Shown here: in pieces, positions 14,923-49,125 of the stretch
Layout of the letters: every line of letters starts with the position of its first letter
Numbering within the stretch: position 1 is the first letter of the stretch
Virus record (IMG/VR): IMGVR_UViG_3300021319_000137
Location: 1-64,000 of that record
Strand: one strand, 5' to 3'
Origin: a virus
Lineage: Duplodnaviria > Caudoviricetes
Length of the DNA: 64,000 nt
Notes under the pieces: generated by a model
What the model was told of the DNA's origin: nothing
The model's input: only the letters and a program-made list of their open reading frames with translations
Databases searched by the model: none
Translations under genes and position numbers: made by a program

Positions 14923-15813
14923 ATGGAGATCACCAACGAAATCAAAACGAGAATCGCGACCGCTATAGCCAGTGACCGCGAGAACTATCCCAGCGACGCC
15001 AAGCACGCCGTCGCCCTAGGCATTGCCCCCAGCGTGTACAACGCCATCAAGAAGGGCAACTTTGAGAAACAGGTCAGCGATGCCAACTGGGTGGGCATAG
15101 CCCGCCGTCTGGGCGTCGTATTGCGCCAGGAAATGGCCTGGACGGCCGCGAAGACCCAGACGTGGGTGTTTATCACCACCCAGCTTGAAACGTGCCAGGA
15201 GGGCAGCCTGAGCGCCATCATGTGCGATATTCCCAATATCGGCAAGACCTTCACCGCCCGTGCCTATGTCAAGACCCACAAGCATGCCGTGTATATCGAC
15301 TGCAGCCAGGTCAAGACCAAGCTCAAGCTCGTGCGCAAGATCGCCAAGGAGTTCGGTGTGAACGCCAACGGTCGTTACAGTGACGTGTATGAGGATCTTG
15401 TCGCCTACCTGCGCACCATCGACACCCCTCTTGTCATCCTTGACGAAGCCGGTGACCTGCAGTATGAAGCCTTCCTTGAGCTTAAGGCCTTGTGGAACGC
15501 CACCGAGCATGCCTGTGGCTGGTACATGATGGGTGCCGATGGTCTGCAGGAGAAGATTGTGCGCGCCATCGAGGGCAAGAAGGTGGGCTACACTGAGATG
15601 CTGAGCCGCTTTGGTGATACCTTCAGCAAAGTCACCCCCGACGATGCCAAGGAGCGCCAGAAGTTCCTCAAGGCCCAGGCTGCTATCGTCGCCCAGGTCA
15701 ACGCCCCTGAGGGCGTGAATATCGCCCAGCTCGTCACCCTGAGCGGTGGCGGTCTGAGGAGGATCTATACCGAGATCGAGAAAATCAAGAAAGGAGGCAA
15801 AAATGAAAATTAG
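14923..15813 (+). CDS. MuB-like transposition AAA ATPase
   Basis: PNIGKT Walker A, ILDEA Walker B; adjacent to the transposase. Confidence 0.88.
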   Translation: MEITNEIKTRIATAIASDRENYPSDAKHAVALGIAPSVYNAIKKGNFEKQVSDANWVGIARRLGVVLRQEMAWTAAKTQTWVFITTQLETCQEGSLSAIMCDIPNIGKTFTARAYVKTHKHAVYIDCSQVKTKLKLVRKIAKEFGVNANGRYSDVYEDLVAYLRTIDTPLVILDEAGDLQYEAFLELKALWNATEHACGWYMMGADGLQEKIVRAIEGKKVGYTEMLSRFGDTFSKVTPDDAKERQKFLKAQAAIVAQVNAPEGVNIAQLVTLSGGGLRRIYTEIEKIKKGGKNEN

Positions 15814-20898: not shown

Positions 20899-22416
20899 AT
20901 GGCGATTACGGTTACTATGAATCATCCCCTATCATTAAACGGGCGTGGCACTGCGCAAGACGTAGTTAGGAAACGGGCAGCCCACGCATCATCGCTTGAC
21001 GCTTCTGGCGCGTGGTATCTCCATGGCGGGAATGGCCAGGTCAACAACAACAACAATAAGAACAATTCCAGGGCCGTGAGGGCGGTGGTCGCGCTTGGTG
21101 ATGAGGAGAAAGAAGGGTGGGTTGATGCCTATTTTGATTGCCTGAGGCACAAACTCAGGGCTAAACAGTGTGGTGAATATAGAACTGACTTCGAGGGTGA
21201 CCTGTGGCGGCTTGTAGGTGAAGTCCATGACCGCACCTATCAACCAAGCGAAGCATTTTGCTTCATCGTCACCAGACCAAGAACCCGTGAAATATTCGCC
21301 GCTGCCTTCCGAGACCGTATCGCCCAGCATTGGATAACCATCAGGCTGGAACCGCTGCTTGAGCGCCGCTTCCGCTCCCAAGGTGATATATCGTTTAATT
21401 GCCGCAAAGGCTATGGCTCCATGAGAGCTGTGCAGACTGCTAAAGGCCACATTGAGCGTGTCAGTGAACGCTACACCCGGGAAGCATGGATTGGGAAGAT
21501 AGATATCTCCGGTTTCTTTATGAGCATTGACAAGGGTATCCTGCTTGATAAGCTGCTGCCGTTCATCCGTGAGAACTATCAGGGCAATGATCTTGATACG
21601 TTGTTATGGCTGACTGAAATAACGGTAAGACATGAACCCCAACTATACTGTGAGCGTCGTTCACCTGAATGGATGTGGAACGATCTCCCAGATAACAAGT
21701 CGCTATTCACGATGCCAAGTGGCAAAGGCATGGCCATCGGTAATATCACTTCCCAGCTGCTGGCGAACTTCTACCTGTCATACTTTGATGAGTTCATGAT
21801 CGAGGAGTGTTCCTACACTGGCGCAGGTTATGTTCGTTTCGTCGATGACGCGCTGATCATCGCCAACGACAAACGCTTCATCATCGACCTGCGCAAGAAG
21901 GCGACGCAGTGGCTGAAGAAGAATCTCAAACTGCAATTGCACAAGGACAAGTTCTACCTGCAGCCCGCCACGCACGGCGTGAAATTCGTCGGCTGTGTCC
22001 TCAAGCCAGGCCGAACGTACACGGCGAACCGAACCCTGGGCAACATGACCAGGCGTGTCATGCAGACCAACAGCCTGTGCCGGGACATCATCGAGAACGG
22101 CCCGACACTTGAGAACCTGAAACTGCTGAAACGCCACGTCTGCAGCCTCAATTCCTACATGGGCTTTTGTGTCCATAACTACACCTTCAACCAGCGACGG
22201 AAGATGTTCAGCAACGCCACATATTTCTGGAAGTGTTGCAACATACAGCATCGGTTCTCGGTGGTGAAGGTCAAGAAGAAGTACAATTATTTTTTGTTCC
22301 TTGTTAAAACAGACCAATTACAACATGAGACAGCAATCAGAAATCTTGCCCCCCTTGGTAAGCGTAAGGCGCGAACTGGGGCAAAACATCTTCACCGTGG
22401 CGTTCAACGTCACTGA
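20899..22416 (+). CDS. DGR reverse transcriptase
   Basis: REIFAAAFRDRI, KIDISGFF, GMAIGNITSQ (DGR-type SQ), YVRFVDD; true start uncertain. Confidence 0.93.
   Translation: MAITVTMNHPLSLNGRGTAQDVVRKRAAHASSLDASGAWYLHGGNGQVNNNNNKNNSRAVRAVVALGDEEKEGWVDAYFDCLRHKLRAKQCGEYRTDFEGDLWRLVGEVHDRTYQPSEAFCFIVTRPRTREIFAAAFRDRIAQHWITIRLEPLLERRFRSQGDISFNCRKGYGSMRAVQTAKGHIERVSERYTREAWIGKIDISGFFMSIDKGILLDKLLPFIRENYQGNDLDTLLWLTEITVRHEPQLYCERRSPEWMWNDLPDNKSLFTMPSGKGMAIGNITSQLLANFYLSYFDEFMIEECSYTGAGYVRFVDDALIIANDKRFIIDLRKKATQWLKKNLKLQLHKDKFYLQPATHGVKFVGCVLKPGRTYTANRTLGNMTRRVMQTNSLCRDIIENGPTLENLKLLKRHVCSLNSYMGFCVHNYTFNQRRKMFSNATYFWKCCNIQHRFSVVKVKKKYNYFLFLVKTDQLQHETAIRNLAPLGKRKARTGAKHLHRGVQRH
20998..21093 (+). repeat. 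DGR template repeat (TR)
   Basis: 96 nt matching 49021-49119; all substitutions are at TR adenines, plus one 3-nt indel. Confidence 0.92.
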
Positions 22417-23149
22417 GGTTGAGAACGGTTATGAATTTGAGACGGCAGAGCTGCCGCCTGGTGTGTGGCGTCGTGACCTGATCATCTCGGCGATTATCCG
22501 CTCACGTTATAACACCGATGACATGGAGGCCATCCATAACAACGTGCTGGCCGACCTGACAGATAAGGAGGCCAAGGCCGCGCATACAGCTATGCAGCAG
22601 TGGCGCACTAAAGCTAAGCAGTGGTCACGTGAACTGATGACATGGGCAGAGGAGAATGGCCTGGCACAGGCTGAGCTGATGCCTGACCCAGAACCTCACG
22701 CCCCGGATGACACTGTTGAGGGTTATGACGGGGTGGCCACCCTTTCGGCCGCTGTTGAACTGGCCAAGGGCCAGGCAACAGATCTGGAGGACGAGACGGC
22801 TGCCAAGTTACCCGAATTGTTCCCGCTGTGGATTAACCAGCTCGGGCAGCAGCTTCATGCCGGTGAGCGTTATAGCTTCGTAGGCCGATTGTGGAAAGTG
22901 CTCCAGGATCACACGGCGCAGGCCGACTGGATGCCGGACACGACGCCCTCATTATTTGCTGAGGTGGCCGCTGATCAGGAGCAGGGCACCATCGACAACC
23001 CGATTCCCTACAACGGTAATATGGCTCTTGAAGAGGGCAAGTATTACACACAGGGAGGTGTCGTTTACCTGTGCATCCGTGACACCATCAATCCGGTGTA
23101 TAACGATCTGAGCGCCCTTGTGGGCTTGTATGTCCAGATCGTTGAGTAG
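22325..23149 (+). CDS. phage protein with C-terminal carbohydrate-binding (CBM5/12-like) modules
   Basis: YSFVGRLWKVLQDHTAQADWMP and YYTQGGVVYLC motifs; overlaps the RT 3' end. Confidence 0.6.
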   Translation: MRQQSEILPPLVSVRRELGQNIFTVAFNVTEVENGYEFETAELPPGVWRRDLIISAIIRSRYNTDDMEAIHNNVLADLTDKEAKAAHTAMQQWRTKAKQWSRELMTWAEENGLAQAELMPDPEPHAPDDTVEGYDGVATLSAAVELAKGQATDLEDETAAKLPELFPLWINQLGQQLHAGERYSFVGRLWKVLQDHTAQADWMPDTTPSLFAEVAADQEQGTIDNPIPYNGNMALEEGKYYTQGGVVYLCIRDTINPVYNDLSALVGLYVQIVE

Positions 23150-25030: not shown

Positions 25031-26338
25031 CTATTTCTTTTTTATATATTTCTTTATTGTTTCTGGATTGTCGGAGATTGAGTGTAGTACATATTCTCCC
25101 CAGTCCCATTCCCAGACAATTATGCACTGTTCTTCTCCCTTGACCGTAGTAGAGAAAATATGGCTTTGCACAACTCTATCCCTACGTTTGTGTGGCGGCA
25201 ATGTAGCAGGGCCTAGGTACTCACTCTCTTCAAGCACTTCGTTAATTCTTAACAATAATTTGTTTTTCTCTTGATAGTGTTTGTTTGGTTGATTTGTCCA
25301 CTCCGAGATAGATGCCCTCGAAATATTAATAGGATGAGGGAAATGTGATGTTGTAATTGAAGTTCCTTGTAGTGGTTTAGCGAGCTTTCTTGTTTGTTTG
25401 GCATCGGCATTAGCCAAAACCCTAACTATACGACAAGCGGCACATAGTTCATTCTCAGGAACGAATGCCAGGTTGACCTTACCCTGGGCGATGTCGCAGT
25501 CCCGGCAGCGGCTGATGGTGTAGGGATTGTAGTCCGGGAACGTCTTGCCTTCCTTGCCCGAGTTGAAGCGGAAGATGCCGCGCGTGTCCTTCTGCAGGGC
25601 TTCCTCGCCCCTGGCACGCGCCTCTTCAGGATCTGTCACCGGGTACTTTGACTTGCGGACCTGGGCCACTGTGCAGCGGCAGTTCCAGCCATTGGGCGGG
25701 TAGTAAGTCTCCCAGAACGGGTCAGAGGGTGGCAGCGTCACCCCATCGAGGGCGGCGTGCTCAGGCCTTACCTTTTCATCATGCTGAGTGCGGTACTGCA
25801 GGTTGTAGCGGTCACCGTCGGCCTCGATCTGCTCCCACTTGGCCGCCATGTCTGCCGAAGCCTGGCAGAAGTTGTACTCGGCCCGCAGGTAGTTTTTATT
25901 GTAGGTGCTATCGATGGCTTGAACGTCATTCAAAAAGCGTTCAAAGGGCTTTCTCTCGCCATTCTCGTCGATGAGTGAGGGAAAGGCCTCGTTCAACTCA
26001 TGGAAGGCCTTAAAGCCCGAGAATATGAAGTTGGAACGCTCCAGCCGGTGTCGCATAGCATCAGACATCGATACCTGCTGCATAGAGTGGTTCAGCGCGT
26101 CGGCATGTGTGCCGATGAAGTCAGTGACCTCGGGTTCCTGGATGACCTGGATGTCGAGCATAGCGCCCTCCTGGCGGTAGAGCGCGTGCATCATTCCCTC
26201 GAACGCCTTGCCCACCCGGTCACGGATCTGCTGCTCGAGATCTTCACGAGCGAGAGTGACGGCGGTAATGAAGCCCTCACGGCCCAGTATTTCGGCATAA
26301 CGCTGGTGCAGCCCCGCATAGTCGGCGGGGCTCAGTCG
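25031..26338 (-). CDS. MuF / SPP1 gp7-like head morphogenesis protein with C-terminal extension; likely reached by -1 frameshift from portal
   Basis: LQYRT..D.KVRPEH, PPNGWNCRC; frame open from the portal end with no canonical start before GTG 26215. Confidence 0.8.
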   Translation of the reverse strand, partial: RLSPADYAGLHQRYAEILGREGFITAVTLAREDLEQQIRDRVGKAFEGMMHALYRQEGAMLDIQVIQEPEVTDFIGTHADALNHSMQQVSMSDAMRHRLERSNFIFSGFKAFHELNEAFPSLIDENGERKPFERFLNDVQAIDSTYNKNYLRAEYNFCQASADMAAKWEQIEADGDRYNLQYRTQHDEKVRPEHAALDGVTLPPSDPFWETYYPPNGWNCRCTVAQVRKSKYPVTDPEEARARGEEALQKDTRGIFRFNSGKEGKTFPDYNPYTISRCRDCDIAQGKVNLAFVPENELCAACRIVRVLANADAKQTRKLAKPLQGTSITTSHFPHPINISRASISEWTNQPNKHYQEKNKLLLRINEVLEESEYLGPATLPPHKRRDRVVQSHIFSTTVKGEEQCIIVWEWDWGEYVLHSISDNPETIKKYIKKK

Positions 26339-26347
26339 AAAAAAGGG
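26310..26347 (-). promoter_or_regulatory. putative -1 programmed ribosomal frameshift signal
   Basis: C CCU UUU UUC slippery run, 5-nt spacer, 8-bp stem AGCCCCGC/GCGGGGCU. Confidence 0.7.
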
Positions 26348-30361: not shown

Positions 30362-30559
30362 TTTTTGCAAAAAATAAAATGTGAATAACGGTGCAAAATT
30401 GGCCGAAAAACGTGAGCGTGACAAAGAAGCGTGCAGGGGTTGCATGGAAGTGTGCAGGGGCTTCACACTTATTTGTTCAGATGGGTTGAAAGGCGCAAAT
30501 TTGCGGTGCTTTTTAATCATACAGTCGCGATGCAATCGCGACATAGAAACCGCAAAACA

Positions 30560-31504
30560 ATGTCGAAAAACAAGAGAGTAAGAATTACCAACGAGCGCTT
30601 GAACAGTTACGGCACGAGGGTGCTGACCTCAGGCATGGACTTGTCGCAATATGAGCGCAATCCCGTGCTGCTTTACATGCACCAGCGTGGCGAGGTGATC
30701 GGCTATGTGAAGGACCTGAAGGTTGAGGGCGACGAGGTGACCGGCGAGCTGATGTTTGACGAGGCCTCCGAACTGAGCCAGCGTTGCAAGAAGCAGTGGG
30801 AGTTCGGTAGCCTGAAGATGGTGAGTGTGGGTCTCGACGTGCTCGAGCTGAGCGAGGACAAGAAATACCTCGTCGAGGGTCAGACGTGCCCGACCGTCAC
30901 CAGGAGCAAATTGTTTGAGGTAAGCCTTGTCGACATCGGCGCCAACGATGATGCCATCGTGCTGATGAAGGATGGTCAACGATTAGAGATGGGCAAGGAC
31001 GGCGAGAGCCCCCTGCCGAAGTTAAACCAACATAAAAATCAAGAAGAAGACATGGACAAGAAAGAGATTGCCCTGCTGCTGGGTTTACCGGCAGACGCAA
31101 GTGATGATGCCATCAAGGCCAAGATCAATGAGCTGAAGACTGCCGCCGATGAACGTGCGGAGCTCTCCAGGGAGAATGACGCGCTGAAGCTGTCACGCAT
31201 CGAAGCTGCTGTTGACGGTGCCATTGCAGAGAAGAAGATCACCGCTGACAAGAAAGATCATTTCATGGAGCTCGGCAAGAAGGTGGGCCTGGAGAGCCTG
31301 GAGGCTACCTTCGGCGCTATGACGCCTCAGGTGAAGCTGAGCCAGGTAATCGGTCATCAGGGCGGTGCCCCTGCAGACAGCACCTGGAAAAAGCTGAGCG
31401 ATGTCCCCGAGGACAAGATCCTGGAGCTGCGCAAGACCAACCCCGATGAGTACAAGCGCCTGTACAAGGCCGAGTACGGCATTGAGTGTGAAATCGCCGA
31501 TTAA
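30560..31504 (+). CDS. prohead protease/scaffold
   Basis: NPVLLYMH, LKMVSVG, LFEVSLVDIGAN followed by a helical scaffold region. Confidence 0.85.
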   Translation: MSKNKRVRITNERLNSYGTRVLTSGMDLSQYERNPVLLYMHQRGEVIGYVKDLKVEGDEVTGELMFDEASELSQRCKKQWEFGSLKMVSVGLDVLELSEDKKYLVEGQTCPTVTRSKLFEVSLVDIGANDDAIVLMKDGQRLEMGKDGESPLPKLNQHKNQEEDMDKKEIALLLGLPADASDDAIKAKINELKTAADERAELSRENDALKLSRIEAAVDGAIAEKKITADKKDHFMELGKKVGLESLEATFGAMTPQVKLSQVIGHQGGAPADSTWKKLSDVPEDKILELRKTNPDEYKRLYKAEYGIECEIAD

Positions 31505-31529: not shown

Positions 31530-32600
31530 ATGAAACTGAAGATGTTGTTTCTTGGCCTTGTCTCGCTTGTGTTTAACAGCGTGATGGGCGCAACTGTGGG
31601 CCATACGGTAGGTATCGATCCGATGGCCGGCGCCATTGGCGCCAATGTGATTGCCGCAGTTGGCGGTGCGTTTAATATGGTGCCTGCGGGCGTAGTCCGC
31701 GAAGGTGTCCTGGTTGAGGTGTGGACCGGAGAGCTGATCAAGTACCTGCGTCGTGGTCTTGAGGCCACCTTCCTTGACGGCATTCCCGATGCGTCGTCGC
31801 TTGCCAATAACGACGTGATCCATCTGGTTGATGTGGGTGTTGACCCTGATGTGCTGGTGAACAACACGACGTACCCCATCCCGCTGCAGAACCTTGATGA
31901 TACTGACAAGACCATCAGCCTTGACAAGTTCCAGAGCAAGGTGACGCCCATCACCGACGATGAGCTGTATGCCCTGAGCTATGACAAGATGGCGCGCGTG
32001 AAGGAGAGCCACGGTAATGCGATCAATGACTCGAAGTTTGCCAAGGCCGCACATGCCCTGTGTGCAAACAGCAACACCGCGACGACCCCTGTTCTTGTTA
32101 CCACCGGCGAGCGTGATGCTACGACAGGCCGCTTAAAGCTCACTGTCCAGGATGTCATCAACATGAAACGCGCGATGGACAAACTGAAGGTTCCTAGCCA
32201 GAACCGCCGCCTGGTGCTGTGCAGCGACCACGTGAACGACCTGCTGGAGACGAGCCAGACCTTTAAGGAACAGTACAACATCAACCGCAATGACGGCACA
32301 GTAGGCCGCCTGTTCGGCTTTGACATTTACGAGTTCGCCAACAACCCGCTGTACACAACTGCGGGCAATAAGAAGGCCGTGGGTGCTACCGCCAGTGCCG
32401 GTGAGTTCCAGTGCTCGTTCGCCTTCTATACACCCCGTGTGTTCAAGTGCACCGGCTCGACAAAGATGTACTACAGCGAGGCCTCGACAGACCCCGAGTA
32501 CCAGCGCAACAAGATTAACTTCCGCCATTACTTCATCTGTATGCCGAAGAAGGCCGATGCCGGTGTTGTGATGCGTAGCGGCTACCAGGCTAGTGCCTAA
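31530..32600 (+). CDS. major capsid protein
   Basis: Follows the protease; EVWTGELIK, HK97-like size and position. Confidence 0.8.
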   Translation: MKLKMLFLGLVSLVFNSVMGATVGHTVGIDPMAGAIGANVIAAVGGAFNMVPAGVVREGVLVEVWTGELIKYLRRGLEATFLDGIPDASSLANNDVIHLVDVGVDPDVLVNNTTYPIPLQNLDDTDKTISLDKFQSKVTPITDDELYALSYDKMARVKESHGNAINDSKFAKAAHALCANSNTATTPVLVTTGERDATTGRLKLTVQDVINMKRAMDKLKVPSQNRRLVLCSDHVNDLLETSQTFKEQYNINRNDGTVGRLFGFDIYEFANNPLYTTAGNKKAVGATASAGEFQCSFAFYTPRVFKCTGSTKMYYSEASTDPEYQRNKINFRHYFICMPKKADAGVVMRSGYQASA

Positions 32601-35234: not shown

Positions 35235-38200
35235 ATGTCGGAGGTAAAGTTTGTCATCAGTCTGGATTCCCGGGCTTTCAAGTCTGGCAGTGAAGAGGTG
35301 AAGGCTCAGGTGAGGCGCATCACCGATGAGGTCAAGGTCGAGGGCGGCAAGATGCAGCGCGAGTTTGACAGTATCGGCAAGTCGATGGGCAGTTCCATGG
35401 GCAAGTACCTTGCTGCCTTTGGCGGTGCTGCTGTGTTCAAGCAGCTGATTGGAGATATGGTGCGCGTGCGAGGTGAGTTCCAGAAGGCGGACACCGCTAT
35501 CCGGACGATGCTGGGCAGCAAGGAGAAGGCTGATGAGTTGATGTCCCAGGTGCGCGACTATGCCAAAATTTCCCCGCTTGAGTTCGGTGACATCACAAAG
35601 GCGACGCAGACGATGCTGAGCTTTGACGTTGAGGCTGCGAAAGTGCCAGGTTATATCAAGGCCATCGGAGACATATCGATGGGCGAGAGCGGCAAGTTCC
35701 AGCAGCTGTCGTTGGCTTTCTCACAAATGAGTGCCACCGGCAAACTCATGGGTCAGGATCTGCTGCAGATGATCAATGCCGGATTTAACCCATTGGCCGT
35801 GATAGCTGAGAAGACAGGCAAATCCATTGCGCAGCTCAAAGACGAGATGAGCAAGGGCAAGATCTCCGCTCAGCAGGTTCAACAGGCTTTCATTGATGCC
35901 ACCAGTGCTGGCGGCAAGTTCTTTAACATGAGTGAGAATGCCGCAAAGACTATTGAAGGCCAGATGTCGATGCTCAGTGATGCTGTGGATGCGGCATTCA
36001 ACGAGGTCGGCACAAAGAGTGAAGGCATTATCACCGGTGCAATCAGCGGTGTAACCAAACTGGTCGAGAACTACGAGGCTGTTGCAAAGGCCATCGGTCT
36101 CCTCATTGCCAATTATGGTGTATATAAGACTGCCGTGATTACGGTCACTGCGGTAGAGCAGGCGCACGGTATAGCAGCTGCAGCAGCTGCAGCAAAGACA
36201 ACCATTCTCAAGGTTGCCCAAGACGCCCTTAACAAGTCTATGCTTGCCAATCCCTACGTTGCAGCAGCGGTCGCTTTGTCTGCTCTTGTCTCTGCCATTG
36301 TCGCAGCTGCTACTGCCACGGATGCCTTTGATGAGGCGCAGAAAAGCCTGGAGGAAGCAGCTGCTGGTGTTGACGCCAGCACGGCAAGTGAAATGTCAAA
36401 ACTTGATGCCCTCTATAAGAAGCTGCTCGAAGCGGAAGAGGGCAGCGAGGCGTATAAGAAAATCAAGCAGCAGATCATTGACCAATACAGCCAGTATTAT
36501 GCCGGCCTTGAAGCTGAATGGGCCAAAGTCGGTAATCTGGCTCTGATGTATGACAAACTGACTGATGCCATCAGAAGGTCAATCGCTGCTCGTCAACTAA
36601 AGTCATTTGTCGATAAGCAGATGGATGCTAACGACAAAGTGGTACAGGAAAAACTCGATGATGCCTACAAGAAACTCATTGACAAGTATGGCAAAGCGAG
36701 AGGAACAGAGCTGTATAAGAAATTCTTCAAGTTCGCCACTCAAGGTGACGGCAAGGACATGGATGCCCAGGATTGGAAGGATCTTGAGAAGGCAACCATG
36801 TGGACTACCCGATGGGGCAAGAATGCCACTGACGGTATTGTGGACTTCCGTGTGAGCGTCAAAGAACTGGCCTATGACATCCAGAAATCCAATAGGGCCA
36901 CACTGGAGAGCATTGAATTATACAAGGAGATGTATGGCATCACTGAGGAAATCAAAGAAGAGACCACTACACCTACCAAAGAACCGACCTATACCGATCC
37001 CAAGGAATTAGCCAGGCAAAAACGTGCTGCTGAGAAAGCCGCCCGAGATAGGGCGCGTATAGCCAAGGAGCAAGCCGATGAATATGACAAGATCACCGAG
37101 ATTCACCTGCATCAGATGACCGAGCAGGGGCGCAAGTCGGCAGATCTAGAACTGGAGGTGCGTGAGGCTGAGATCCGTGCCATGCGCCAGGGTACCAAAA
37201 AGACCCTTGCTGAAATTGAGCTTGCCCGGGATAAAGAAGTTACATCGGTAACGCGATGGTATGAGGATCTGCGCCAGAAGCGTATTGATGAAGCCAAGAA
37301 GCTCTGGGATGCCCAGAAGAAAAACGAGGGCAAGAAGTTCTACGAAAGTGAAGAATACAAGAAGGCGTCCAGCAATGAAGCATACACTGATGAAGAGAAC
37401 AATGCCTTCAAGAAACGTATGGCCGCCGCCAATCAGGTATATGCCAACTCACTGAAAGAGATTCAGGATAATGAGACCGCTGCCCTCACTTCGTTTCTGC
37501 GTGAGTACGGGAATTATCAGCAGCAGCGCTTGGCCATTGCCCAGGAATATGCCAAGAAGATCGAGAAGGCAGAGACCGAGGGCGAACGTTTGACGTTACG
37601 CGCTGAGGAGCGTGAAGCCTATAGATCGCTTGATTTTGATCAGTTCAAAAAGTCAATCAACTGGGAGGCGGTGTTCAGTGATCTCGACGGTGTGTCGCTG
37701 GAGCACCTCAATACCTTAAAGGAACAGCTGCAGGGAACACTAAAAGATGGCACGCTATCCGCAATAGACTATAAGACAGTCGTTGAGCAGATCGGCAAGA
37801 TCGAGGAGGCTATTGTCGCCAAGCAGAACGAGTGGAAAAATGTGTTCGGCCTAACAATCCCCGAACTGGAAAAAAGGAAACGCTTGGAGCAAGAAGCTGT
37901 TGATGCCCAACAGCGTGCCGTTGATCTCCAAAGGTTGCAGGCGGAAGCGCAGAAGCGCTTGAACAGCGCGAAAACGACCATCCAGGCTGCGTTGAACTTC
38001 AAGATCGATGCCGAAGACATCAAGGTGGAGAATGCGCAGGAGATCCTTAACAAGTTCACCCCCGACACGGAAATCTACAAAACCCTTACACGTCTGTTTG
38101 GCAACCTTGCCGATGCTGAGCATGACCTTTCAGCGACCACCGAGGAATACAACACCGCTCAGGCTGATGCTGTCATCAAGACCGAGAAGGCCCAGAAGAC

Positions 38201-39587
38201 GTTGACCAGTGCTATTTCAGCCATCAATGAGATAGCACAGAAGGTAAATGCGAATATCCAGTCCACTGTTGACCTTATTGAGACCCTTGGTTTGGGTGAT
38301 TCAGCATTTGGTAAGGGCTTTGGTGATTTCGCTGATGCTGCCCAGTCGATGAGCGATGCTTTTAGTGCGCTGCAGAACGGTAACATCATGGGTGCCATGA
38401 ACGGTGTGTTGAGCAGCGTCGGCTCATTGGGTCAGGCCTTGGGCAAATGGGGCATTGCCGGGATGGGTGACAGTGACAAGACTCTTGCTGAGGACATGGA
38501 GCGGTTGACAGAGAGCAACGAGGCGTTGAAGCGTAGCGTTGATGACTTGACCGACGAGATGAGCGAGAGTGCTGTAGCCGATGCCGGCGAGATCTACAAG
38601 CAGCTGCAGTCGAACCTGGAGCAGTCTCAGCGTAATACCCAGGAGATGCTGCGTCGCATGGGTGGGGCCTACAATAACGGCTTCCTGGGCATCGGCGGCA
38701 AGGGTTCCTCGAACAGCAAAATCAACGAGGGTGTGAACTCCAGCGAGTGGCAGCGGGTGTCTCAGATCGTTGGCAAGAGCGTGACGAGTGCGAGCCAGTT
38801 CTGGTCACTGACAAGCGAGCAGATGCACAAGGTGGCGAAGGATGCCCCCGAGGTGTATGCCCATATCAAGCAGCTGGCGGCTGAGGGCTACCAAGATGCG
38901 GCGCAGTACATGGATGACTACATCGAATACTGGCGCGAGCTTGAGGAGGCTGCCGAGGCTTATGCCGAGAAGATCACGGGTGTGTCTCTGGACAGCGTTG
39001 TGGGCGATTTCCAGCGTATGCTTGCTGACATGGACAGCAGTGCCGCAGACTTTGCCGACGACTTCGAGAAATACCTGCAGAACGCGATTATCGGCGCCCT
39101 GGTGTCGGACACGTATGAGCCGCTGATCAAGCAGTGGTATGAGTCGTTCAGGAAGGCTGCCGAGACCGACGGCATAGACCAGGCCGAGCGTGACGCGCTG
39201 CAGCGTGACTGGGACCGGATTGTGGGAGACGCCCTGCGCGACCGTGAACAGCTGCGCGAGCAATTCGGCTGGGGCAGCACCGGTGAGGGTAGCGGCGCAT
39301 ACAAAGCCGTGGCCTCGTTCACTCAGGAGCAGGGTGACGAGCTGAACGGGAGGTTGACCGCCATCCAGATTGGTCTGGAGCGCGAGAACCAGTCGCTGTC
39401 TGCTGCCGTGAGTGCCCTACAGGGGCTGTCGGTGGTAACCAATGCCCAGGGTACGACGTTGAACGAGATGCGCAACCTGCTGCTGATCGGTAATGGCCAC
39501 CTGGAGGACATTGCTCGATACACGAAAATCGCTTCACAGTATGGCGATGCGATAGAGACGATAGCCAACAAGATAAAGGAACTATAA
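35235..39587 (+). CDS. tape measure protein
   Basis: 1450 aa, Ala-rich helical; GQDLLQMINAGFNPL tape-measure domain. Confidence 0.92.
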   Translation: MSEVKFVISLDSRAFKSGSEEVKAQVRRITDEVKVEGGKMQREFDSIGKSMGSSMGKYLAAFGGAAVFKQLIGDMVRVRGEFQKADTAIRTMLGSKEKADELMSQVRDYAKISPLEFGDITKATQTMLSFDVEAAKVPGYIKAIGDISMGESGKFQQLSLAFSQMSATGKLMGQDLLQMINAGFNPLAVIAEKTGKSIAQLKDEMSKGKISAQQVQQAFIDATSAGGKFFNMSENAAKTIEGQMSMLSDAVDAAFNEVGTKSEGIITGAISGVTKLVENYEAVAKAIGLLIANYGVYKTAVITVTAVEQAHGIAAAAAAAKTTILKVAQDALNKSMLANPYVAAAVALSALVSAIVAAATATDAFDEAQKSLEEAAAGVDASTASEMSKLDALYKKLLEAEEGSEAYKKIKQQIIDQYSQYYAGLEAEWAKVGNLALMYDKLTDAIRRSIAARQLKSFVDKQMDANDKVVQEKLDDAYKKLIDKYGKARGTELYKKFFKFATQGDGKDMDAQDWKDLEKATMWTTRWGKNATDGIVDFRVSVKELAYDIQKSNRATLESIELYKEMYGITEEIKEETTTPTKEPTYTDPKELARQKRAAEKAARDRARIAKEQADEYDKITEIHLHQMTEQGRKSADLELEVREAEIRAMRQGTKKTLAEIELARDKEVTSVTRWYEDLRQKRIDEAKKLWDAQKKNEGKKFYESEEYKKASSNEAYTDEENNAFKKRMAAANQVYANSLKEIQDNETAALTSFLREYGNYQQQRLAIAQEYAKKIEKAETEGERLTLRAEEREAYRSLDFDQFKKSINWEAVFSDLDGVSLEHLNTLKEQLQGTLKDGTLSAIDYKTVVEQIGKIEEAIVAKQNEWKNVFGLTIPELEKRKRLEQEAVDAQQRAVDLQRLQAEAQKRLNSAKTTIQAALNFKIDAEDIKVENAQEILNKFTPDTEIYKTLTRLFGNLADAEHDLSATTEEYNTAQADAVIKTEKAQKTLTSAISAINEIAQKVNANIQSTVDLIETLGLGDSAFGKGFGDFADAAQSMSDAFSALQNGNIMGAMNGVLSSVGSLGQALGKWGIAGMGDSDKTLAEDMERLTESNEALKRSVDDLTDEMSESAVADAGEIYKQLQSNLEQSQRNTQEMLRRMGGAYNNGFLGIGGKGSSNSKINEGVNSSEWQRVSQIVGKSVTSASQFWSLTSEQMHKVAKDAPEVYAHIKQLAAEGYQDAAQYMDDYIEYWRELEEAAEAYAEKITGVSLDSVVGDFQRMLADMDSSAADFADDFEKYLQNAIIGALVSDTYEPLIKQWYESFRKAAETDGIDQAERDALQRDWDRIVGDALRDREQLREQFGWGSTGEGSGAYKAVASFTQEQGDELNGRLTAIQIGLERENQSLSAAVSALQGLSVVTNAQGTTLNEMRNLLLIGNGHLEDIARYTKIASQYGDAIETIANKIKEL

Positions 39588-43386: not shown

Positions 43387-46300
43387 ATGTCAGAGATTAT
43401 CAATATCAACGAGGACTGGCAACTTCACAGTGGCGCTGAAGTACAGGTCTATATCAAGAAACTGTTGGGCGATCTGGACCGAGGCCTTGCCGGCAAGATC
43501 GGATGCCTTCGCACCTATGAGGACGAAGACGAGGAACTTCACCTGGTGGGCTTCGCTACCCTCGAAGACTACGATACATGGTTTAACGACCACGAGGCGA
43601 TTACTCCCATCACGGACATCATCATCCCCAAGGGCAGCGGTGCCGAGACGGCCTACACGCTGGTCCTCGAGGGCAACACCCCTGTTGCCGTGCAGATGAC
43701 CAACGACTTCACCGTGCGTCTCAAGGCGGTATATCTTTACAACAGCGGCGGTGTGGCACAGGAAGTCCCCGACTGGGTGACGCTCACCGTCCAGCGAATG
43801 GACAACAATCAGCGCTGGGTGACCTGCGGACGCTTCACTGTGGAGTCCAACCGCTACAACTACATCTCGATGAAAGGCATCCTGCCTTCCGGCAATGTCC
43901 ATGTCCGCATCACGGCCGCCGCTGAGAAGGCTTCAACGGCCATCCCGTTCACCTTCCAGGTCAACATCGTGAACATGACCTTGACGCCCGCAACGGCATT
44001 CCAGGTCCCCTTCGATCAGGACGCGCTGCTTACCCTGCAGTATTATATCACCGGCAACATCTCGAAGACGCTGTTGCTGAAGTTCGACGGCGGCGGTACA
44101 GGCAAAGAGCTGGTCATCGACGGCATCACGCACAGCGATGCCGACACGCCCTACTCCTGCGAGGTGCAGGGCTTGACGGATGTCCTTACACCTGGTCTCC
44201 ACACTGTGGAGGCCCAGCTGAAGTACAATGATGACCTGGCCACGGATTGGGTCATGAGCGAGTACCTGGTACTCGGTGTCGATGCCCCTGTGGTGTCCGT
44301 CAACAATATCTCAGACGGACTATCGAACTGGACCGACGTCCACTTCTTCGACTGGTCCGTCCTTACGCCTGACGGAAATCCCATGAACGTCATTATGCGG
44401 CTGGTGGATGCCAACGACAACACCACCGAATATGCGCGCTGGTCGTTCAACGGCGCCCCCAGGAACAAATATCCCTTCACGACGCAGCTGGCCATCGACG
44501 GGGTGAGTGACACCTGGATCGATGCAGTCATGCTGATCGAGGACAGCGAGGGCAACGAGCTCCACGATCCCGTGGCCTTCGGCCTGGAGAATGAGGCCAG
44601 CTTCGCGCCCAACGCGGGAGCGTCCTTCGTCCTCTCGCCCGCTGTGCGCTCCAACGCTGAGGAGAATCCCGCCACCATCATCAACACGGTGAACGGTGAT
44701 ATCCTGGCACAGGCTGAGGACTTCGTGAACTTCGACTTTTCCACCGACGGCTGGAAGGAAACGAGCTATGAAGGCTCGACGGTGAGGGTGCTGCGCATCC
44801 CTGCAGGGCGCCAGCTGACCATCCACCACAATCCCATGGCAGACTTCACCGGCGCCGACAATACGGGCCGCAGTTTCGTCTGGGAGATGGACTTCGTGGT
44901 AGATAACATCGTGGACGATGAGGAACCGCTGATCGAGCTGGGCAGTCTCCGCAACTCCGGCGTATGGTGGGGCTTCCGTCTGATGCCCTCTCGCGCCATG
45001 CTGCTGACCTCGAACAAATACACCGAGCCCGACCAGGATCTGGCCTGGGCGGAGGGCAAGCGTTTCCACCTGGCCATCACCGCCCAGTACGGAGGTGAGG
45101 CGTCACCGAACATCCTGCGCATGTACCTCAACGGGCGTCTCGAGAGGGAGTTTGCCTATGACACGGATGACCGCTTCACTCCCGAGAATGCGGTAATGGT
45201 CATCGGCAACACCTCCAGCGATATCGATATCTACGGTATGCGCTGCTACCGCTCAGCACTCAGCTCGTCGGCCGTCATGCAGGACTACAAGGCATCGATG
45301 TCCACCACGGCCGAGAAGATCGCCTTTGAGGCAGCCAACGATATCCTGGATGACCGTGGCCGCATCGACTGGGACAAGTGCCTGGGTAAGTACAACATCA
45401 TCGGCCACAGGGGACCGCTGCTGCACAAGGGCATGGAAAACAACACCCAGCACGGCATCAGCATCGAGATCCACATGCCGGACGATGAGGAACACAGCGG
45501 CACCCTGACTGAGCTCGACAACAAGGGGCAGGGTACCACGGCCATGACGTATTACTGGTGGAACCAGCAATACAAGACCACCGACAACACCCAGCTGCTC
45601 GATGATGAGGGCAATCCCAAGGGCGAGACGGGTGACGGTTACGCCATCCAAGCCAACGAATATCTTGCTACGAAACTGGTGGGCAAGGTCAACTTCGCCT
45701 CCTCGATGCAGTCCCATAAGCTGGGACTCACCAAGGCCTTCACCGAAGTCTTCAAGCAGATGATGCGTGACGGCAACATGAGCTCTCCTGGACAGTTCGC
45801 CACGTTCCCCAATGCACGCCTGGCCGTGCTCGAGAAACCCTTCCTGTTCTTCGTGTGGGATGAGGCCAACAGCCGCTATGAGTTCCGCAACCTGATGACC
45901 TTCGGCGCCGGCAAGGGCGACAAACCCACCTTCGGCTTCAACAAAAACTCCACCGGCCACATGCTGATGGTGGAGGGTGCCGACAACGACGTACCCCTGG
46001 CACGCTTCAATATGCCGTGGGATGACACGAACATCACCTATGACATTGACAAGGAGGCATGGATGTACAACGGGGCAAAGAACATCAACTTCGGCTTCGG
46101 AAAGACTTCCAGCGACGTTCCCAGCGACACGGATGCCCTGACTGCAGTAAAGAACTTCTTCAACTTCGTGTACCTGCACAGCACCAAGATCGAGTTCTTC
46201 AACGGCTCGCTTGACGCCCTGCAGCGCACGTCAGGCTCTCGCCTGTCTCCTCAGAGATGGCTCACAGGATCCTATGACCTGTATCGCTATGACGAGAAGA

Positions 46301-49125
46301 CCAGCCGATGGGTGCCCGCCGGTATCGACAATGCCCAGCTCAACCTGCTGGACCAGTACGAGGACTTCACGGGCGACGCCTTCAACACGTCACAATCCAA
46401 CCAGGCTAAGAACGAGGCCTTCAAGGCTGCACGCCTGGCACACTTCAAGGCTCATGCTGCAGAGTACTTCCATGTGGATGACGCGCTGTACCACTACTGC
46501 TTCATCAAGCTGATTGCCGGTACCGACAACCGCTGTAAGAACACCTACTACTACACCGACCCTGTGACACTGAAGATCCGTTGGATGCAGGACGATGTGG
46601 ACACGGTGCTGAAGACCAACAACGTCGGCCAGAACCGCAAGCCGTACTGGGTGGAGGAACACACCAAGGACGGAAGCGGCGAGAACTACTGGCAGGCTGA
46701 GGAAAGCACGTTCTACTGCCTGCTCGAGGAGGCATGGGACCGTGACACGCCCGAAACGGGACAGCCCAACATCCAGCAGACCATGCGCAATATGCTGGCC
46801 GCCATGTCCACCCTGGGAGGCGGCAGCGTGATGGGCTTCTTCGAGACCTACCTGCTGTCCGTTCCTGACTACTTCCCGGCTGTCGCCTACAACGAGCAGG
46901 CACGCGCCGTCTATGAGTACAGCTACCGCCTGCAGCTGACGGGTGAGTACAGCAACGACACCAACGCGCTGTCGCAGTCCTGCGGCTCCCAGCGCTGGTC
47001 GGAATACCAGTGGCTCGTTGACCGCATCATGTTCATCAGCTCGTGGTGCCAGTACGGCGAGTTCGCCAGCGCGACCTCTGCCGGCGGTCTGTCCTGGCGT
47101 GGCGCGACAGGTACGCACTACATCACCGTCAAGCCCGCCAAATGGATGTACCCGCGTATCGCCGTCGGCTCGTCGAACGTGGGCGGCACGGCGCTTCGTG
47201 CGCCTGGTGAGGCCCACGCGTTCAACGCTGTGTCCTCTCAGGGCGATACCGCACTGGCGATCCGTGGCAACGACTACCTGTTTGACCTGGGAGATATGGA
47301 CCAGTACCAAACGGTGACTGAGTTCGGCTTCACGGGTAAACGCCTCCAGCAGATTACCGTGAACCCGCTGGGCACGAACAACCCTGTGCGCTGGAGCGCT
47401 CCGGCTGTCCGTGTGAACTCGACGAACATCAAACGCTACATCCACCGCAACACGCCGCTGGCCAGCGGAACGCTCGACCTGTCGGCCTGCGTCCGCCTGG
47501 AGGAGATCAACGTGGAGGGCACGAGCTTCACGGCCGTCAAGCTGCCCTCGACGGGCTCGCTCACCGACTTGACGCTACCGGCTACGCTGGAAGCGTTGAC
47601 GCTGGTAGGATGCCGCAACCTCGAGACCCTGGCCATCGGAGGCTATGGCGCGATGACTGAGATCACCATCAAGGGCACGCCACTGGCCGACTCCCTGTAT
47701 ATCGTCCAGCAGGCGATTGGCCACCTCAACAAAGTGGACATCGATAATATGGACTGGCGCATCTCCGGCGCCTCAGGACTGGCGCTGCTCAATGCGCTGG
47801 CCGCCCTCGGCTCCAACTGTAAGCTGTCAGGCACCATCACACTGACGGCCGTCACGCCCAGCTTCGAGGACAAGGCGGCATGGCTGCAGGCCTGGGGCGA
47901 TGTTGACCATGGCACGAACGGGCTAACCATCGTCTATTCGCAGACCACGATCGAGAACGTGCGTATCATCACGGGCAAGTACCTCGAGTCTCTGGGTGAC
48001 CACCAGATGCGCCTGAACTCAGCCGGCAACAACTTCACGGCCGTGCAGTGGTCAATAACCAGGAACAACTTCGCCACCATCGATCCCAATACAGGCGTCG
48101 TCACGGTGACGGCCATGGACACTGAGGCTGCAGGGCCTTATGCCGACGTGACGGTGAGGGTGACGCGCCTGGACGGCGTTGTGCTGGAGGACACCAAGCG
48201 CTTCTACTTCTGCGAGCACGTCTGCCGCGAGGGCGATTACGTATATGCAGACGGCACCTTCAGCGATGAACTGCTGTCCTATAAGACGGTTATCGCCTTG
48301 TGCTTCTACATCAACCCGAACAATCCGGCTGACCGCCTGGCTGTCTCGCGCGGCAACGTCATCACCGACCAATGGGGATTGTACAACAATGCGTCTTATG
48401 GCGTTCCAAACGTCACGGTGGATGGATATTCGAGCATCTACGATACGCCGGTCATCAACATCCAGTCCAACGGTAACGGCGATATCGATAACCTGGCATC
48501 CATGGCATCGTTCGCCACCTACCTAACCACGACGGCCGTCGGTGACGTGGGCCTGGTTGAACTGACCGAAGACATCGGCCCGTTCCGTGTAGGTGACTTT
48601 ATTCACCGTGGCCAGTACAAGACGCTGCAGCTGATCCGTCACCGCAACCGCATCCTGAACGGCGTGACGAGCGACGTGGGCTCGCACGTGCCCACTGTGC
48701 CCGTGGCCAATGCGAACCAGACGGAGCGCGAGGTATTGACCAACCTCATTGCGGACATCGTGGCCAAAAAAGGCAACAATTACCGACAGTTCTACTACCC
48801 AGCAGCCAGCTACTGCTACGCCTACCAGCCCACCTATGCGCTCCAGCCGGGTGAAGTGCTGGCCGACAAGTTCAAGGCGCACAACTGGTGGCTGCCGACG
48901 CTCGGCGAGCTGGGCATGGTCTATTGGCAACAGGTGAAAGGCGGCATCTTCGCGGCCGCGCAAGCCAACAGCCGTTACTCCAATCTGACGAACGATTGGC
49001 ACTGGACATCAACGGAATACGACGCTTCTGGCGCGTGGTATCTCCATGGCGGGAATGGCCAGGTCTACGGCAACTACGGCAATAAGAACGGTTCCAGGGC
49101 CGTGAGGGCGGTGGTCGCGTTTTAA
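43387..49125 (+). CDS. large tail fibre/adhesin; DGR target with C-terminal C-type-lectin-like variable domain
   Basis: 1912 aa; WWLPTLGEL...WTSTEY...AWY...VRAVVAF CLec pattern; VR at the 3' end. Confidence 0.88.
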   Translation: MSEIININEDWQLHSGAEVQVYIKKLLGDLDRGLAGKIGCLRTYEDEDEELHLVGFATLEDYDTWFNDHEAITPITDIIIPKGSGAETAYTLVLEGNTPVAVQMTNDFTVRLKAVYLYNSGGVAQEVPDWVTLTVQRMDNNQRWVTCGRFTVESNRYNYISMKGILPSGNVHVRITAAAEKASTAIPFTFQVNIVNMTLTPATAFQVPFDQDALLTLQYYITGNISKTLLLKFDGGGTGKELVIDGITHSDADTPYSCEVQGLTDVLTPGLHTVEAQLKYNDDLATDWVMSEYLVLGVDAPVVSVNNISDGLSNWTDVHFFDWSVLTPDGNPMNVIMRLVDANDNTTEYARWSFNGAPRNKYPFTTQLAIDGVSDTWIDAVMLIEDSEGNELHDPVAFGLENEASFAPNAGASFVLSPAVRSNAEENPATIINTVNGDILAQAEDFVNFDFSTDGWKETSYEGSTVRVLRIPAGRQLTIHHNPMADFTGADNTGRSFVWEMDFVVDNIVDDEEPLIELGSLRNSGVWWGFRLMPSRAMLLTSNKYTEPDQDLAWAEGKRFHLAITAQYGGEASPNILRMYLNGRLEREFAYDTDDRFTPENAVMVIGNTSSDIDIYGMRCYRSALSSSAVMQDYKASMSTTAEKIAFEAANDILDDRGRIDWDKCLGKYNIIGHRGPLLHKGMENNTQHGISIEIHMPDDEEHSGTLTELDNKGQGTTAMTYYWWNQQYKTTDNTQLLDDEGNPKGETGDGYAIQANEYLATKLVGKVNFASSMQSHKLGLTKAFTEVFKQMMRDGNMSSPGQFATFPNARLAVLEKPFLFFVWDEANSRYEFRNLMTFGAGKGDKPTFGFNKNSTGHMLMVEGADNDVPLARFNMPWDDTNITYDIDKEAWMYNGAKNINFGFGKTSSDVPSDTDALTAVKNFFNFVYLHSTKIEFFNGSLDALQRTSGSRLSPQRWLTGSYDLYRYDEKTSRWVPAGIDNAQLNLLDQYEDFTGDAFNTSQSNQAKNEAFKAARLAHFKAHAAEYFHVDDALYHYCFIKLIAGTDNRCKNTYYYTDPVTLKIRWMQDDVDTVLKTNNVGQNRKPYWVEEHTKDGSGENYWQAEESTFYCLLEEAWDRDTPETGQPNIQQTMRNMLAAMSTLGGGSVMGFFETYLLSVPDYFPAVAYNEQARAVYEYSYRLQLTGEYSNDTNALSQSCGSQRWSEYQWLVDRIMFISSWCQYGEFASATSAGGLSWRGATGTHYITVKPAKWMYPRIAVGSSNVGGTALRAPGEAHAFNAVSSQGDTALAIRGNDYLFDLGDMDQYQTVTEFGFTGKRLQQITVNPLGTNNPVRWSAPAVRVNSTNIKRYIHRNTPLASGTLDLSACVRLEEINVEGTSFTAVKLPSTGSLTDLTLPATLEALTLVGCRNLETLAIGGYGAMTEITIKGTPLADSLYIVQQAIGHLNKVDIDNMDWRISGASGLALLNALAALGSNCKLSGTITLTAVTPSFEDKAAWLQAWGDVDHGTNGLTIVYSQTTIENVRIITGKYLESLGDHQMRLNSAGNNFTAVQWSITRNNFATIDPNTGVVTVTAMDTEAAGPYADVTVRVTRLDGVVLEDTKRFYFCEHVCREGDYVYADGTFSDELLSYKTVIALCFYINPNNPADRLAVSRGNVITDQWGLYNNASYGVPNVTVDGYSSIYDTPVINIQSNGNGDIDNLASMASFATYLTTTAVGDVGLVELTEDIGPFRVGDFIHRGQYKTLQLIRHRNRILNGVTSDVGSHVPTVPVANANQTEREVLTNLIADIVAKKGNNYRQFYYPAASYCYAYQPTYALQPGEVLADKFKAHNWWLPTLGELGMVYWQQVKGGIFAAAQANSRYSNLTNDWHWTSTEYDASGAWYLHGGNGQVYGNYGNKNGSRAVRAVVAF
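49021..49119 (+). repeat. DGR variable repeat (VR) including a GC-rich IMH-like 3' end
   Basis: Matches the TR with AAC->TAC/GGC and AAT->GGT changes. Confidence 0.92.

Follow-up and report, generated by a model that had tools for sequence, protein, structure and literature searches.

Programmed ribosomal frameshifting in tailed phages is textbook knowledge for the tail chaperones, and it is known for some capsid proteins. The tail assembly chaperone pair G/GT is produced by a -1 frameshift in lambda and in most long-tailed phages (Levin et al. 1993; Xu, Hendrix and Duda 2004, cited in PMC6316719), and a -1 shift at UUUUUUC has been proposed for the tail-chaperone proteins gp17.5/17.5* of phage SPP1 (PMC6316719). 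Heptamers of the H_HH.U_UU.Y class, including U_UU.U_UU.C, rank with the motifs of highest -1 efficiency in Escherichia coli, and are used by some insertion sequence (IS) elements (PMC4066793). In SPP1, the MuF-family protein gp7 binds the portal protein gp6 and through it reaches the inside of the procapsid, at a few copies for each capsid (PMC6316719, PMC5576092), and portal-MuF fusions encoded by a single gene occur in Microbacterium phage clusters EA3/EA5/EA8 and EB (PMC7302621). Here we analyzed the first 64,000 nucleotides (nt) of the IMG/VR virus record IMGVR_UViG_3300021319_000137, a stretch that we refer to in its whole length as the window, in which a slippery heptamer and a hairpin mark the junction between a portal gene and a MuF gene. 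We conclude that the site at the end of the portal gene probably drives a ribosomal -1 frameshift that yields some portal-MuF fusion protein; the slipping itself is what we infer from the conservation, covariation and coding patterns described below.

The locus resembles the G/GT tail chaperones, which provide a fixed ratio of a short and a C-terminally extended protein, in that those systems were recognized through conservation and that SPP1 is proposed to use the same heptamer. It differs from them in that the two proteins are the portal and MuF, in the head module, that a clear covarying hairpin is present, and that what is added is an entire protein of 435 residues with domains of its own. 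The succession of heptamer, spacer and downstream stem-loop is also that of E. coli dnaX (tau/gamma) and of orfA-orfB in the IS3 family, although an upstream Shine-Dalgarno-like enhancer is neither evident here nor expected in Bacteroidota, and the products in our case are virion proteins. Four relatives (P0232, P0233, P0237, P0240) carry single-gene fusions of the Microbacterium type, joining the same two proteins with the portal first. Read-through of such a gene would put MuF on every portal chain, whereas the two genes in the window lie in different frames and a fusion could arise only from slipped ribosomes. As with gp6 and gp7 of SPP1, the MuF-family gene follows directly after the portal gene; the association in SPP1, however, is a binding of separately translated proteins, while in the window it is predicted to be covalent and set by recoding.

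Full-text literature searching turned up no publication that describes recoding in a portal gene; two candidate papers dealt with other genes. A recoding review (PMC5009743) does not use the word 'portal' in its accessible portion, and a survey of MuF proteins (PMC5576092) mentions neither frameshift nor fusion. Because natural fusions in a single open reading frame (ORF) exist, a portal-MuF fusion as such is not new; making it by recoding is. The finding would represent a known mechanism at work in a new pair of genes and retained over a large clade of gut phages.

The junction between the portal and MuF genes

The portal and MuF genes are encoded on the minus strand of the window. At its 3' end the portal gene reads CGC CCU UUU UUC GAC UGA, with the stop codon at 26334-26332, and the elements of the two genes and of their junction are the following.

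27657-26332, minus strand: portal gene of 441 amino acids (aa), zero frame, ending ...VRPFFD-stop (Pfam PF06074 Portal_Mu)
26347-26341, minus strand: overlapping second heptamer C_CCU_UUU, in the portal zero frame, not conserved
26344-26338, minus strand: slippery heptamer U_UUU_UUC (P-site UUU, A-site UUC), in the portal zero frame, proposed site of the -1 shift
26337-26333, minus strand: 5-nt spacer GACUG, overlapping the portal stop UGA
26332-26310, minus strand: hairpin, putative stimulator, with an 8-base-pair (bp) stem AGCCCCGC/GCGGGGCU and a 7-nt loop CGACUAU
26338-26216, minus strand: start-less N-terminal extension of MuF in the -1 frame, beginning RLSPADYAGLHQRY
Peptide of the start-less stretch in this window: LSPADYAGLHQR
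26297-26323, minus strand: conserved DY.GLH.RY motif inside the extension
25031-26215, minus strand: MuF as the ORF finder reads it, from GTG 26215
~25667-25930, minus strand: Phage_Mu_F domain (PF04233; E-value 1e-16, 62.1 bits against a cut-off of 29.6)
~25127-25393, minus strand: LPD3 domain (PF18798; E-value 5.3e-14), at the C-terminus of MuF
27657-25034, minus strand: predicted trans-frame product of 875 aa, derived from the sequence

A sequence-only reading of this DNA had described two heptamers, a 5-nt spacer, an 8-bp stem with a 7-nt loop, an open -1 frame, 41 start-less codons and an 875-aa product, and each of these is present in the sequence. Relative to the portal, MuF lies in the -1 frame, which stays open from 26395 to the stop codon at 25033-25031. 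Counting from the CGA at 26338, 41 codons are free of ATG, GTG and TTG; the first such codon is GTG 26215, and the start chosen by the gene caller is ATG 26194, giving a product of 387 aa (P0001). The predicted fusion adds 435 codons of the -1 frame to 440 of the zero frame, 875 aa in all. The Portal_Mu match extends over the full length of the profile (1-336 of 336; E-value 8.6e-77, 259 bits, cut-off 23.9), and the final ~45 residues of the portal are of low complexity and hypervariable across relatives. The downstream gene belongs to the Phage_Mu_F/SPP1 gp7 family by a profile match over the gathering score together with its position directly 3' of the portal gene.

The elements of a -1 frameshift cassette are found together at this junction. 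The heptamer is an in-frame X_XXY_YYZ, a spacer within the ~5-9 nt range leads to a stable RNA structure, and the -1 frame is coding and open beyond the zero-frame stop, with no conserved start of its own. In isolation the hairpin has a folding free energy of -15.5 kcal/mol, and it appears in both the minimum free energy and the centroid folds.

Conservation of the slip site

To the window we added 168 related loci, gathered from IMG/VR and GTDB species genomes by protein similarity rather than by motif, with MuF identities down to ~49%. They include Prevotella, Segatella copri, Bacteroides, Paraprevotella clara, Parabacteroides, Muribaculaceae, Odoribacter, Paludibacteraceae and Sodaliphilus. 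Paraprevotella clara YIT 11840 (L093) and Segatella copri HDE04 (L137) are cultivable carriers among them. Junctions were intact in 165 of the 168, the exceptions being L074, where the end of the contig cuts the locus, and L142 and L148, which are truncated. The frame analysis used 124 distinct junction sequences, and 103 distinct sequences were aligned for the analysis of the signal and stem.

The sequence-only reading had suggested, as a check of its proposal, to see whether relatives keep the slip site and hairpin where their portal genes end, and the outcome was strongly positive, with compensatory changes in the stem (see below). The sequence nnT_TTT_TTC, the portal stop, the 5-nt spacer and the hairpin occur at fixed offsets in all 165 intact junctions, including five with a deviant peptide motif. 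U_UUU_UUC is unchanged in every one of the 103 aligned sequences, and holds its offset in 161 of the 162 motif-bearing junctions; the portal stop may be TGA, TAA or TAG, again at a constant offset. Information content is close to zero across the 60 nt upstream, in the variable low-complexity tail of the portal, and peaks from T6 to the end of the stem. Synonymous diversity is 0.30 over the slip site and stem, compared to ~0.72 elsewhere. A pattern scan of IMG/VR found at least 108 contigs that match the full signal. Of the two heptamers that had been proposed as slippery, only U_UUU_UUC shares in this conservation, and C_CCU_UUU does not, CCC preceding T6 in only 30/103.

The composition of the run bears on a different route to the same protein. 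In transcriptional slippage, RNA polymerase would add an extra U on T6, so that some mRNAs encode the fusion in one frame and no ribosome has to slip. The product would be identical, and polymerase slippage is plausible at the lengths of the A runs seen at the junction in related lineages (A10 and A7 in the phage Peternella_1, and A11 in the relative L178, both described below). However, known bacterial sites of transcriptional slippage are long homopolymers, typically of nine or more A or T, and the run in the window is only T6. It is not extended in relatives, remaining T6 in 100 of the 103 sequences and reaching T7 in three, each through a C-to-T change immediately upstream. The heptamer's closing C never varies, and the arrangement, with a covarying hairpin exactly 5 nt downstream, is that of a ribosomal stimulator, unlike that of known polymerase-slippage sites. 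We consider transcriptional slippage very unlikely here.

The codon overlapping the portal stop offers a further explanation, namely that non-AUG initiation, or termination followed by reinitiation, at the overlapping CUG (CUGA) gives a free full-length MuF and no fusion. CUGA resembles the AUGA stop-start overlap of translational coupling, and UUG stands at this codon in a few relatives, where gene callers use it (P0041, L171); the apparent 'M' start of P0041 (L171) is in fact this UUG overlapping the portal stop. Among the 103 sequences, though, the codon is CUG in 57, CUA in 23, UUA in 16 and UUG in 7. With CUA or UUA in 39/103, the CUG at 26335-26333 is ruled out as a conserved start. Reinitiation also does not account for the invariant T6C upstream, nor for a signal that lies 14 codons before the stop, as in the Hankyphage lineage, or inside a continuous ORF, as in the relative L175. 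It appears to us extremely improbable. The sequence-only reading had named an independent start of MuF at this CTG or at GTG 26215 as the alternative that would refute it. The second codon fares no better than the first; its column holds a start-type codon in 16 of the 124 distinct sequences, which rules out GTG 26215 as a conserved start.

Covariation in the hairpin

Standard pairs are formed in 99.4% of the 824 stem cells of the 103 distinct sequences, and the stem retains pairing through changes on both sides. The first inner pair is AU in 50 sequences, UA in 36 and GC in 15, and the second is CG in 68, GC in 22, AU in 7 and UG in 3; at a third pair, CG has changed to UA two times. Both-sided changes are thus found at three pairs, CCCU/AGGG variants being among them. 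The covariation score is 0.276, compared to 0.064 in shuffles, none of which (0/500) attains the observed value, and slid controls scored no higher than 0.02.

The covarying bases are the first and second positions of two separate codons, and the residues that they encode shift jointly (Ala/Ala, Ser/Leu, Thr/Val, Asp/Ser, Ser/Glu), as base pairing demands. Free variation is seen in the loop and in the wobble position of the Leu codon that immediately follows the stem. We also considered an intrinsic terminator on either strand and rejected it; on the coding strand T6 lies 5' of the hairpin, and on the opposite strand the run that follows the hairpin is one of A.

Coding capacity of the start-less MuF extension

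In the protein database many MuF homologues are called from a conserved Met-Met, as proteins of 385-397 aa. The N-termini of those that are called longer align with the RLSPADYAGLHQRY... stretch of the window and have DY.GLH.RY in common with it. Between the hairpin and Met-Met, an interval of 29-65 codons, the MuF frame is free of stops in 124/124 distinct sequences, and the other two frames contain stops in 69 and 114 of them. No in-frame ATG lies between the preceding stop and the DY.GLH.RY motif at any of 162 loci, and GTG or TTG is found there in 18 only. Conservation beyond the stem shows the codon periodicity of the MuF frame (CAY nnn MGN TAY), the DY.GLH.RY motif is conserved while its codons vary synonymously, and nonsynonymous diversity in the extension is below synonymous diversity (pN < pS). 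An AlphaFold2 model of the -1 product has a confident helix at residues 34-56, which starts 10-17 residues before GTG 26215 and ATG 26194. On this comparative evidence, the start-less stretch upstream of MuF is genuine coding sequence.

These observations have to be set against the possibility that MuF is made only from an internal start, either Met-Met 26194 or GTG 26215, and that T6 and the hairpin are kept for mRNA processing or stability, or for pausing at the portal end, with no fusion being formed. Gene callers choose ATG 26194 (P0001). Because Bacteroidota initiate translation without a Shine-Dalgarno sequence, its lack upstream of the internal codons is uninformative. An internal start nevertheless leaves unexplained the 29-65 upstream codons that are open in the MuF frame throughout, the upstream peptide motif conserved with synonymous variation, and the confident helix that begins before the Met; GTG 26215 is moreover not conserved. 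The Met is also present in single-ORF fusions, where a role as a start is impossible, and it may therefore be structural. We judge it very unlikely that internal initiation is the whole explanation.

Several points weigh against a frameshift at this junction. Met-Met, situated 50 codons along the -1 frame, is kept in 117-121 of the 124 sequences, so that an independent start is conceivable, and part or even most of MuF is possibly made separately. AlphaFold2 confidence is low over the first 33 residues of the extension. The heptamer alone is no rarer than chance, with 20 occurrences of TTTTTTC in the window compared to 13.8 expected, and the local fold of 91 nt has a z of -0.65, a stability ordinary for such G+C-rich DNA (rich in guanine and cytosine). 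We know of no measurement of -1 frameshifting in Bacteroidota, and the efficiency data cited above are from E. coli. Since the signal in a single sequence is within chance, its significance rests on position, conservation and covariation among relatives. The proposal that a -1 frameshift fuses the portal to MuF, which had been made from the window by itself, is supported by that conservation, by the covarying stem and by the coding start-less frame, which together make slipping probable.

Variant junctions and distant lineages

In one subfamily (L169:64-190, L172:2125-2260) an insert of ~75 nt lies inside the hairpin loop and brings an ATG with it. In the insertion variants T6C is retained, as are the two arms of the basal stem, where the two examples differ in a compensatory way, and the -1 frame stays open; the insert itself folds as two additional arms, with z = -3.3 and -3.6. 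P0002 and P0033, which appeared to be homologues with a junction ATG of their own, are explained by this insertion, as the signal and the open -1 frame are retained.

Single-ORF proteins of 861-977 aa that combine Portal_Mu and Phage_Mu_F are found among the relatives, on several independent contigs and in the same gene context. Their existence indicates that a covalent portal-MuF fusion is viable. In one of them, L175 (4350-4400), the portal frame retains CGT_TTT_TTC, followed after a 6-nt spacer by a GCCCCC/GGGGGC hairpin; the zero frame leads to the fusion, and the -1 frame closes after 14 codons. Slipping in L175 would produce a short portal, following the logic of dnaX, where the slip truncates the protein. 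A second, L178 (4205-4235), has an A11 run at the junction, and both of its alternative frames end within ten codons. L175 and L178 thus keep a slip signal at the junction and could also give a short portal. Because the signal is kept whichever frame enters MuF, we argue that the selected function is the making of both products.

The signal extends to the Hankyphage lineage, in which MuF is only ~30% identical and U_UUU_UUC with a hairpin occurs in 69 junctions. In Bacteroides phage p00 (OY725595.1, L174:2220-2262) the portal frame has CGT_TTT_TTC, followed by a 6-nt spacer and a GCCCCG/CGGGGC hairpin. In this lineage (L174, L179-L257) the signal lies 14 codons ahead of the portal stop and the -1 frame enters MuF; in many members the annotated MuF start lacks an ATG, and these read FRLVVDRLY.

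Winogradskyella phage Peternella_1 (MT732475.1, L173:2225-2260), a marine phage of Flavobacteriia, has runs of A10 and A7 at the end of its portal gene, and its MuF frame is open from these runs, 43 codons before the annotated GTG start. It is possible that the A runs are a comparable slippage site, built on another motif.

Among the relatives (P0027, P0044, P0129, P0121-P0231), MuF is modular in its C-terminal part, with LPD3, CdiA_C-like and HINT or intein-like inserts, and the HINT or intein-like inserts approximately double MuF, to ~800 aa. The sequence-only reading had assigned a toxin domain to MuF, which the domain matches do not bear out. The C-terminus in the window is LPD3 (PF18798), no known toxin, and CdiA_C-type and HINT modules occur in relatives only. 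MuF polymorphic toxins are characterized by a recognizable C-terminal toxin domain (Jamet et al. 2017), and the protein in the window does not have one.

The prophage and its head module

The junction is harbored by a Mu-like prophage of ~37 kb, at ~12.0-49.5 kb of the window (12000-49500), with a G+C content of 50-60% compared to 33-46% in the flanking DNA. No closely related annotated phage was found in the GenBank phage collection. Apart from the portal and MuF, the following genes were recognized.

30544-29888: terminase small subunit, head module
29885-28329: 518-aa ORF at the position of the terminase large subunit, without a Pfam match, head module
28087-27668: gp36-like adaptor, head module
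14923-15813: AAA_22 (MuB-like) gene
30431-31504: prohead protease/Mu I-like gene
31530-32600: capsid gene
35235-39587: tape-measure gene

The block of terminase, portal and MuF and the block of protease, capsid and tail genes are transcribed divergently, the split being at ~30.5 kb. The canonical tail-chaperone frameshift was sought as a positive control upstream of the tape-measure gene, at 33.9-35.3 kb, and a clear -1 ORF pair was not seen there. A reverse transcriptase gene lies within the prophage at 20899-22416 (RVT_1, E-value 1.8e-12), and the next ORF, at 22301-23149, matches CBM_5_12; the RVT_1 gene may belong to a diversity-generating retroelement resembling that of Hankyphage. The most G+C-rich part of the prophage (~60%) holds an ORF of 1912 aa at 43387-49125, whose sole match, a weak one to Lcl_C, is C-terminal; it is presumably a tail fiber or host-recognition protein.

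Proposed mechanism and significance

According to the mechanism that we propose, a ribosome with UUU-UUC (Phe439-Phe440) in its P and A sites would have the G+C-rich hairpin of 8 bp, which lies 5 nt downstream, at its mRNA entrance. A fraction of ribosomes would slip back by one base, with the two tRNA-Phe re-pairing on UUU-UUU, and would then reread base 26338 as the first base of CGA, continuing with CGA CUG AGC... through the start-less extension and into MuF. The slipped product would be an 875-aa portal-MuF-LPD3 chain of ~98 kDa, and a ribosome that does not slip would incorporate Asp and terminate, leaving the 441-aa portal of ~49 kDa. The fusion might be processed afterwards, for instance by the prohead protease encoded at 30431-31504. 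Fusion chains could then co-assemble with plain portal subunits, the variable portal tail of ~45 residues acting as a linker. In portals generally, the C-terminus points into the capsid interior. MuF and its C-terminal cargo would in this way be placed inside the head, in a copy number set by the efficiency of frameshifting. MuF may also be initiated at the internal Met-Met (ATG 26194), alongside the fusion route.

A more sweeping model is conceivable, which we put forward tentatively and which could well prove too strong. Throughout the clade of Mu-like phages of Bacteroidales, including the ubiquitous Hankyphage lineage, full-length MuF might exist solely as a frameshift-dependent extension of the portal and never as a free protein. 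The efficiency of the shift, multiplied by twelve, might then set the number of MuF proteins in each head together with their swappable cargo (LPD3, CdiA_C-type toxins), and lineages in which the genes are fused might keep the signal for the production of plain portal. If true, this would be a recoding-based stoichiometry device for cargo that is attached to the portal and possibly ejected.

The carriers of the junction are very common prophages of the human and animal gut, which makes the proposal easily testable, and the natural compensatory variants of the hairpin are a ready mutational series. If the frameshift is real, it would account for the systematic truncation of MuF by gene callers in hundreds of gut-phage genomes. 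It would also provide a way for a minor head protein to enter the capsid interior in low, defined copy number and with no extra step of binding, and would account for the loading of the cargo domains that are fused to MuF.

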